DNA from: a virus
Virus genome (UHGV): UHGV-0145877
Direction: 5' to 3' (one strand)
Length of the DNA stretch: 25,947 bases
Position 1 is the first letter of the stretch. Every line of letters begins with the position of its first letter. The position numbers and the translations under genes are program-made. Below are positions 15,771 to 16,712 of this stretch, piece after piece. Below the pieces are notes generated by a model. It searched no databases and was not told where the DNA came from. It worked only from the letters and a program-made list of their open reading frames with translations.

Positions 15771-16088
15771 TTAAATGCCATCAACGTACGAAATGGTTTC
15801 TTTGTACACTGGCTCGACTGCACCCAGCTTGCCGTAGTAAGTGACGATCTGATACAGACCGCGATACTGCACCGGCACGCTCTGAAGCGGAACCAGCGGG
15901 TAGCGGACGTATTTTTTATCGTTGGTGTACGCAACCATGCGATCCTTTTTCCCCACACCACGGCCTTTCAGCCATTTAACCGCGCGGATATTCAGCGGAA
16001 CACCGTTCTGGTGATAGCTGATGGTGTTGGTCTGAAGATACGTCAACAGGGACTGGTTACCCGCAGATGAAACGATGATGCTGGACAA
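15771..16088 (-). CDS. C-terminal segment of the putative major capsid protein (in frame with 16098-16712, separated by a TAG)
   Basis: Begins 3 codons after the TAG at 16098-16100 in the same reading frame. No Shine-Dalgarno; the track start is a TTG. Confidence 0.45.
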   Translation of the reverse strand: MSSIIVSSAGNQSLLTYLQTNTISYHQNGVPLNIRAVKWLKGRGVGKKDRMVAYTNDKKYVRYPLVPLQSVPVQYRGLYQIVTYYGKLGAVEPVYKETISYVDGI

Positions 16089-16097
16089 CAGAGCAAA

Positions 16098-16712
16098 CTA
16101 CTCAGGCGGGATCAGCAAATCACGCGGAACCACAGAGTAACCGGAAGCGGCCCACGCATCAGACAGCGCCTGGTTAATGCTTGCGCGGATTTCGTCCGGT
16201 GTTGAGGTTGCCCACGTTTTGGCAGCGTTGTTGACAGGCACGCCGTCCAGGGTAACAAGGCCTTTCAGGTTTAATGCGGAATCGCCAACATATACCTGTT
16301 CATCGTTATCCATCTGCCATTTCAGTTGCATACCGTCATACTTCTGCGTATCAATCGGGCGGCCGACCTGCTGAGCAGCCTGCAATTCTATGACCGTCCA
16401 GCCAAGTTCCATCCCCCACAGGTTCAGCGGGTTACCGGATTTGCCGATATCCACGTTCACGCCAGCAATAGCGGTTGAGTCTTTGCCTACCCAGTTTTTG
16501 CCATTCGGATTTGCACCAGTACCCGCAGCGGCGAAGCTGGTATTCGTCCAGCTGGAAATGTCATCTGCGATGGAGACATCTTCACGCAGTTGGATATCGC
16601 GGGTCCAGGTGTACCCCACCAGTGGCAGGTTCAGTGTCTGGTCGAGTCGTTCCAGCTCCCCGATGAGAAAGGCACCAGAGCTGTCAACGGTTGCCTGATC
16701 AAAAGTAATCAT
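16098..16712 (-). CDS. Putative major capsid protein, N-terminal segment ending at an in-frame amber codon
   Basis: 204-aa ORF in the major-capsid position (after scaffold and decoration genes). Ends ...LLIPPE-TAG and continues in frame as FALLSSIIVSSAGNQ... Confidence 0.5.
   Translation of the reverse strand: MITFDQATVDSSGAFLIGELERLDQTLNLPLVGYTWTRDIQLREDVSIADDISSWTNTSFAAAGTGANPNGKNWVGKDSTAIAGVNVDIGKSGNPLNLWGMELGWTVIELQAAQQVGRPIDTQKYDGMQLKWQMDNDEQVYVGDSALNLKGLVTLDGVPVNNAAKTWATSTPDEIRASINQALSDAWAASGYSVVPRDLLIPPE

Follow-up and report, generated by a model that had tools for sequence, protein, structure and literature searches.

The DNA analysed here, a 25,947-nt stretch of virus genome UHGV-0145877 (hereafter the window), comprises the late region of a lambdoid Escherichia coli prophage whose structural module is of the contractile-tail Pam3/E217 type. 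The element belongs to a common family of lambdoid myovirus-type prophages found in E. coli, Shigella and Salmonella. From the left in plus-strand coordinates, a plus-strand acyltransferase gene is followed by tail fibre and fibre-assembly, baseplate, tape measure, tail assembly chaperone, tube, sheath, neck, capsid, cement, DUF2213, MuF and portal genes and, at the right end, by TerL, TerS, accessory genes and a lysis cassette; the genes of the module are read on the minus strand. In the QML220601 prophage, the same structural module stands beside lambda-type N, cI-like, cII, O/P, ren, nin, Q and lysis genes.

The amber codon in the capsid reading frame

The capsid position of the module (15771..16712, minus strand; 313 codons plus stop) is occupied by a major capsid protein gene of the PF09950/DUF2184 family, with an HK97 fold, that contains one amber codon. 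Its first part is a minus-strand ORF (16098..16712) that begins with ATG (16710–16712), extends over 204 codons to ...RDLLIPPE and ends at TAG (16098–16100). The ribosome-binding region of this ORF is GGA-rich (AAGGAACAGACGAATG), and the sequence preceding its ATG is AAGGAACAGACGA. Beyond the TAG the frame remains unchanged through TTT GCT CTG (F A L) to a TTG at 16086–16088, which is the first possible start of a 105-aa minus-strand ORF listed at 15771..16088 and closed by TAA at 15771–15773. If the TAG is read through, the product has 313 aa (15771..16712, minus strand). Direct reading of the sequence before the TTG disclosed no convincing Shine–Dalgarno motif comparable to that of the upstream ORF. 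The in-frame amber after ...LLIPPE, the three-codon F-A-L link into a TTG-start ORF lacking a Shine–Dalgarno motif and the combined length of 313 aa had all been described in a sequence-only reading of this DNA, and all were found in place.

Both pieces match the Pfam profile PF09950 ('Major_capside', formerly DUF2184) above its curated cut-off of 26.8 bits. The N-terminal fragment (residues 1–204; 16101..16712, minus strand) covers profile positions 4–141 of 251 (E = 1.3e-44, 152.9 bits), and the C-terminal remainder (residues 206–313 plus TAA; 15771..16097, minus strand) covers positions 143–251 of 251 (E = 1.5e-35, 123.2 bits). Exactly one profile position is absent between them, and it is the site of the stop codon. 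Since the two matches occupy adjoining positions of one profile, the 204-codon and 105-codon ORFs are no chance juxtaposition, and the sequence-only proposal of a single, interrupted gene of capsid size is borne out.

Residues 72–312 of the intact 313-aa protein further align (E = 3.6e-19) with chain A of PDB 8HDT, the structure of the cyanophage Pam3 capsid; the alignment crosses the truncation point and runs on to the C-terminus. The major capsid protein of Pam3, gp7, has a canonical HK97 fold and forms a T=7 capsid (PMC9942802). The synteny of the head module is likewise kept, in the order portal, MuF, DUF2213, cement, capsid and head-tail connectors, with the gene for a DUF4054 (E217 gp27-like) connector protein downstream of the capsid gene. 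Directly upstream lies an intact gene for a capsid cement/decoration protein of the E217 gp24 / Pam3 gp6 / XM1 gp53 family (16724..17230, minus strand; PF23982 E = 8.7e-31, PF22758 E = 1.8e-21), equal in length to those of its relatives. It is preceded by an intact DUF2213 (Pa193 gp24-like) head protein gene (17234..18454, minus strand; PF09979 E = 8.5e-42; 1221 nt as in relatives), whose product is probably a scaffold or protease. On the grounds of the PF09950 matches, the head-module neighbours and the 8HDT alignment, 15771..16712 is the major capsid gene of the phage. No uninterrupted ORF covers the whole fold in the window: the amber at codon 205 of 313 removes the last 109 residues (35%) of the protein.

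Origin and distribution of the TAG allele

Megablast of the region retrieved the same gene from 339 of 5,426 complete E. coli genomes, where it is annotated as one 'DUF2184 domain-containing protein'. In the E. coli prophages of QML220601, BEN2908 and RM8082 it is a single 942-nt CDS encoding WP_000627479.1. Compared with the QML220601 gene (L001), the window is identical at 941 of 942 nt and 312 of 313 residues; codon 205 (16098..16100, minus strand) alone differs, with a premature amber TAG in place of the ancestral glutamine codon CAG. The mutated base is window 16100, C to T on the minus strand and G to A on the plus strand; its equivalent is C in L001 as well as in three further sequences (L002, L003 and L016). 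A Dcm (CCWGG) 5-methylcytosine deamination hotspot was considered as the cause of the C-to-T change and rejected, no CCWGG overlapping the site (wild-type context, GAGCAGTTT).

The five intact homologs compared, of which three stem from isolated phages, all keep Gln205 within a conserved IPPEQ(F/Y) motif. The uninterrupted homologs (79–100% identity) all have 313 aa and keep this residue; among deposited phage genomes they are present in Escherichia phage vB_EcoM-606R2, Hafnia phage yong1, SEN34 and Mulock. The protein is annotated as 'major head protein' in Salmonella phage SEN34 and as 'major capsid protein' in Klebsiella phage Mulock. The sequence-only reading had suggested looking for a homolog across the junction, and in every homolog examined a single ORF spans it. 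Of the explanations offered there, this supports a nonsense mutation, one base (CAG to TAG) away from the intact 313-aa allele.

The surroundings of the lesion are well preserved. In the 7.2 kb that surround the capsid gene, the window and the QML220601 prophage differ by 47 substitutions and 0 gaps, and the head, neck, tail, baseplate and terminase ORFs all match the lengths annotated in that prophage. The capsid gene is the sole visibly broken gene in the window and carries no second change, the pattern of a simple-nonsense pseudogene with a single substitution in 942 nt relative to L001 and no further lesion. Judged by these comparisons, the lesion appears to be very recent and to sit in an otherwise functional-looking prophage, and 15771..16712 is best described as one disrupted capsid gene that is, by prediction, functionally a pseudogene.

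The frequency of the two alleles was assessed with 51-mers carrying the variant base at the centre, where a 28-base megablast seed cannot form over a mismatch. Among the 5,426 complete E. coli genomes, the CAG version matched 281 and the TAG version 0. An exact 42-mer with TAG likewise had no match in GTDB species-representative genomes, JGI metagenome contigs or IMG/VR, and the TAG allele is therefore rare.

Gene calls on 17 public contigs nevertheless include a product identical to the truncated 204-aa protein. Five of these, from five accessions, were fetched, and TAG is present in 5/5. One (L004; ENA ERZ28648668, scaffold VATT16-1_SAMN05827115_METAG-scaffold_132, 33,463 bp) is 100% identical to the window over 19,850 bp and is evidently its source; to judge by the scaffold label, the data set may be a human infant-gut metagenome. 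Those from SRR4408037 (L005) and SRR35966472 (L008) are identical to the window, and that from SRR30949679 (L007) differs from it by gaps only. The contig from ERR2909981 (L006) has six substitutions in 4.2 kb relative to the window; because of these six other differences, it does not represent the same assembly or reads. Its substitutions fall in two tight patches (window 17627–17732 and 14807–14836; 1002–1107 and 3898–3927 in the contig), and the first patch, within the DUF2213 gene, holds four of them, three of which are the allele of phage vB_EcoM-606R2. This distribution points to recombination or gene conversion between related prophages. Independently sequenced DNA thus shows the amber allele on two or more backgrounds. 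The lesion is reproducible at the level of assembled contigs, in five accessions, one of which carries six other differences.

In the contig from SRR30949679 we also noted fragmented gene calls, with 0 mismatches and 7 gaps against the window and the TAG still there; the gaps are probably indel errors of an error-prone assembly.

Proposed consequence and competing explanations

We consider it very probable that a heritable CAG-to-TAG nonsense mutation has arisen in the only major capsid gene, leaving a young, head-defective prophage that is passed on vertically within its bacterial lineage. The single C-to-T transition at window 16100 turns Gln205 into an amber codon, and under this model translation in a non-suppressing host would halt at UAG-U after residue 204 of 313. 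Residues 1–204 are expected to be the sole part translated in such a host, and residues 206–313 to stay untranslated without amber suppression. By what is established for HK97-fold capsids and for amber mutants of phage head genes, the 204-residue fragment, lacking the C-terminal 35% of the HK97 fold, would form neither hexamers nor pentamers, and no DNA-filled heads would be made; capsid function and particle production would be lost. The prophage would still be maintained, the cell would presumably still be lysed and tails still be made, and the element would persist by vertical inheritance, possibly also because it carries cargo of benefit to the host, the acyltransferase for instance.

Translation is unlikely to start again at the TTG three codons past the amber, as this codon is without a ribosome-binding site, and a re-initiated C-terminal piece would not be expected to rescue the fold, whose parts should have to share one chain. 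A T=7 head takes about 415 copies of the capsid protein, and therefore even ~1% basal read-through would cut particle yield drastically.

Among the alternatives, an improbable one is that the prophage depends on a suppressor, with an amber suppressor tRNA in the host chromosome, or in the unseen segment from Q to holin, keeping the phage viable. A supE/glnV-type suppressor inserts glutamine and would recreate the wild-type capsid protein exactly, CAG to TAG being precisely the change that a glutamine-inserting suppressor undoes. Every other morphogenesis gene is still intact, and the occurrence of the allele in several accessions, together with the recombinant background, implies that it has persisted for some time. 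The source scaffold ends 70 nt past the holin gene, and at that place, just past the right edge of the window, the closely related QML220601 prophage has two tRNA genes. These are, however, Thr and Asn tRNAs and not suppressors; ARAGORN detected no tRNA gene within the 25.9-kb window; and the products of the four other TAG-ended genes in the window would be extended by suppression. Wild E. coli seldom carry efficient amber suppressors. The gene also carries zero further substitutions, as expected of a null mutation of very recent date, and therefore no selection need be invoked. A literature search on natural amber suppressors in wild coliforms and on prophage nonsense alleles returned nothing directly useful.

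Likewise improbable, if anything a little more so, is the idea that the amber allele is more than a dead copy. Either a natural glutamine-inserting amber suppressor would be present in the E. coli lineage or in a prophage segment beyond the window, making the prophage a naturally occurring conditional ('sus') phage that is productive only in suppressor hosts, or the host would have favoured the knockout as a first step of domestication. In the domestication version, the acyltransferase, lysis and tail genes would be kept while infectious particles would be abolished. That the allele persists on two or more backgrounds, which differ slightly, could be a hint of tolerance; clonal hitch-hiking explains it equally well.

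That the TAG reflects a sequencing or assembly error, the true codon being CAG and the gene intact, appears very unlikely on the contig evidence. A single-base difference in a metagenome-derived scaffold would invite this explanation, as would the lack of any TAG match among complete E. coli genomes, GTDB representatives and contigs of JGI metagenomes and IMG/VR. The same T nonetheless recurs in independently assembled contigs of five accessions, and substitution errors at an identical site are not expected in independent short-read assemblies. The error option raised by the sequence-only reading is effectively refuted.

A still fainter chance attaches to an alternative genetic code (code 15, TAG = glutamine) or to a regulated leaky stop that sets capsid dosage. 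TAG-to-Gln recoding is known in gut phages, including crAss-like and others. The phage studied here is gut-associated too and has its TAG where glutamine is expected, within a late structural gene, which is the pattern that recoded phages display (bioRxiv 10.1101/2021.08.26.457843; PMC9523058). Unlike those phages, the window has a single in-frame TAG in ~34 genes, the remaining ~33 ORFs being of normal length, and TAG still acts as a terminator. Stop codons among the 34 ORFs taken as window genes are TAA in 16, TGA in 13 and TAG in 5. TAG genuinely terminates the acyltransferase gene (461..1660, plus strand), the gene at 6260..7030, the tape measure gene (9448..11457) and the gene at 22764..23288 (plus strand), the last without a counterpart in QML220601; for the other three (acyltransferase, 399 aa; 6260..7030; tape measure), the lengths agree with calls or annotation elsewhere. 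The window also lacks a suppressor tRNA. Against programmed read-through, the stop is unconserved, with CAG in 281 and TAG in 0 of 5,426 E. coli genomes and glutamine in 5/5 homologs. The base that follows the TAG is T, so the fourth base of the signal is U, and the UAG-U context is generally regarded as an efficient terminator in E. coli. Recoding and programmed read-through were rejected on these grounds: TAG ends four other genes, the window is without tRNA and the stop is unconserved.

Two separate functional proteins from a split capsid gene, the second starting at TTG 16086–16088, can practically be dismissed: gene callers do list both pieces as ORFs, but each homolog examined is one ORF, the Pfam profile crosses the junction with exactly one position missing, no ribosome-binding site precedes the TTG and a single base change separates the arrangement from an intact allele, so that continuous homologs and profile effectively refute this option of the sequence-only reading.

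Relation to known systems and accessory segments

The prophages encoding WP_000627479.1 share with the window the flanking order portal, MuF, DUF2213, cement, capsid, STY1053, DUF4054, neck and sheath and differ from it in having CAG where the window has TAG at codon 205; elsewhere they are mosaic with respect to it, being about 96–97% identical over about 80% of the window. Phage vB_EcoM-606R2 with its relatives, and likewise SEN34 (Brunovirus), yong1 and Mulock, have the same module and a 79–99% identical capsid protein, but theirs is uninterrupted. As the database lists them as genomes of phages, working virions can presumably be built from this type of capsid. The relationship to Pam3 is distant: gp7 is homologous over residues 72–312, and gp6 belongs to the same cement family (PF22758). 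Position 205 aligns with a lysine in Pam3 gp7, and Gln205 is therefore not universally required.

The lesion is of the same type as in classical laboratory amber (sus) head mutants, a CAG-to-TAG change in an essential head gene, and such mutants are exactly reversible by a glutamine-inserting supE suppressor. Unlike laboratory sus stocks, the present allele occurs in naturally sampled prophage sequence with no sign of maintenance by a suppressor. Nonsense-inactivated prophage genes are commonplace, and hence no new kind of system is involved here; the capsid amber is a real, inherited instance of ordinary prophage decay, with a type of lesion that is already known. It illustrates cleanly how such decay begins, with one essential late gene hit and the rest untouched. 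The practical consequences are small. For annotation, 15771–16712 should be called one disrupted capsid gene and not two hypothetical proteins, and prophage-prediction tools will score the element as 'intact' though it is most likely unable to form heads. The case would gain in interest if the carrier lineage had an amber suppressor, as one of the supE type would restore the wild-type capsid protein exactly.

Several segments outside the capsid gene were also noted. The acyltransferase gene (461–1660, plus strand) encodes a 399-aa membrane protein with an Acyl_transf_3 domain (PF01757) and lies at the prophage end, beside a tail-fibre assembly gene (1704..2135). An identical protein adjoins a phage integrase in three other sequences (L010–L012) and bioA/ybhB in a fourth (L009). 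The gene is likely lysogenic-conversion cargo for O-antigen acetylation, and such cargo could favour retention of a defective prophage. Window 1–175 has no long ORF and fails to align with the acyltransferase neighbourhoods of L009 and L010, which are otherwise 99% identical; here the element may pass into another flank, such as an integrase remnant or attachment region.

In the baseplate region, 5857–7526 is a mosaic segment that has diverged from the QML220601 prophage, and the ORFs at 5878..6273, 6260..7030 and 7151..7492 belong to no Pfam family. A stretch of ~1.8 kb (22737–24538) that separates the lysis cassette from the small terminase gene is not common to the QML220601 prophage. It carries two accessory ('moron') genes, one for a 214-aa T5orf172/MUG113-domain protein (23870..24514, minus strand) and the other a 174-aa ORF without a Pfam family (22764..23288, plus strand). 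The tRNA-Thr and tRNA-Asn genes of the QML220601 prophage (L015 34754–34909) lie between the Q antiterminator and the holin genes. Within the head module, the longest MuF-like ORF (18469–19242, minus strand) overlaps the 3′ end of the portal gene (19094–20560, minus strand) by 149 nt; its start is uncertain, the CDS being annotated with either 735 nt or 609 nt in relatives and called with 149 aa in the source scaffold (L004).
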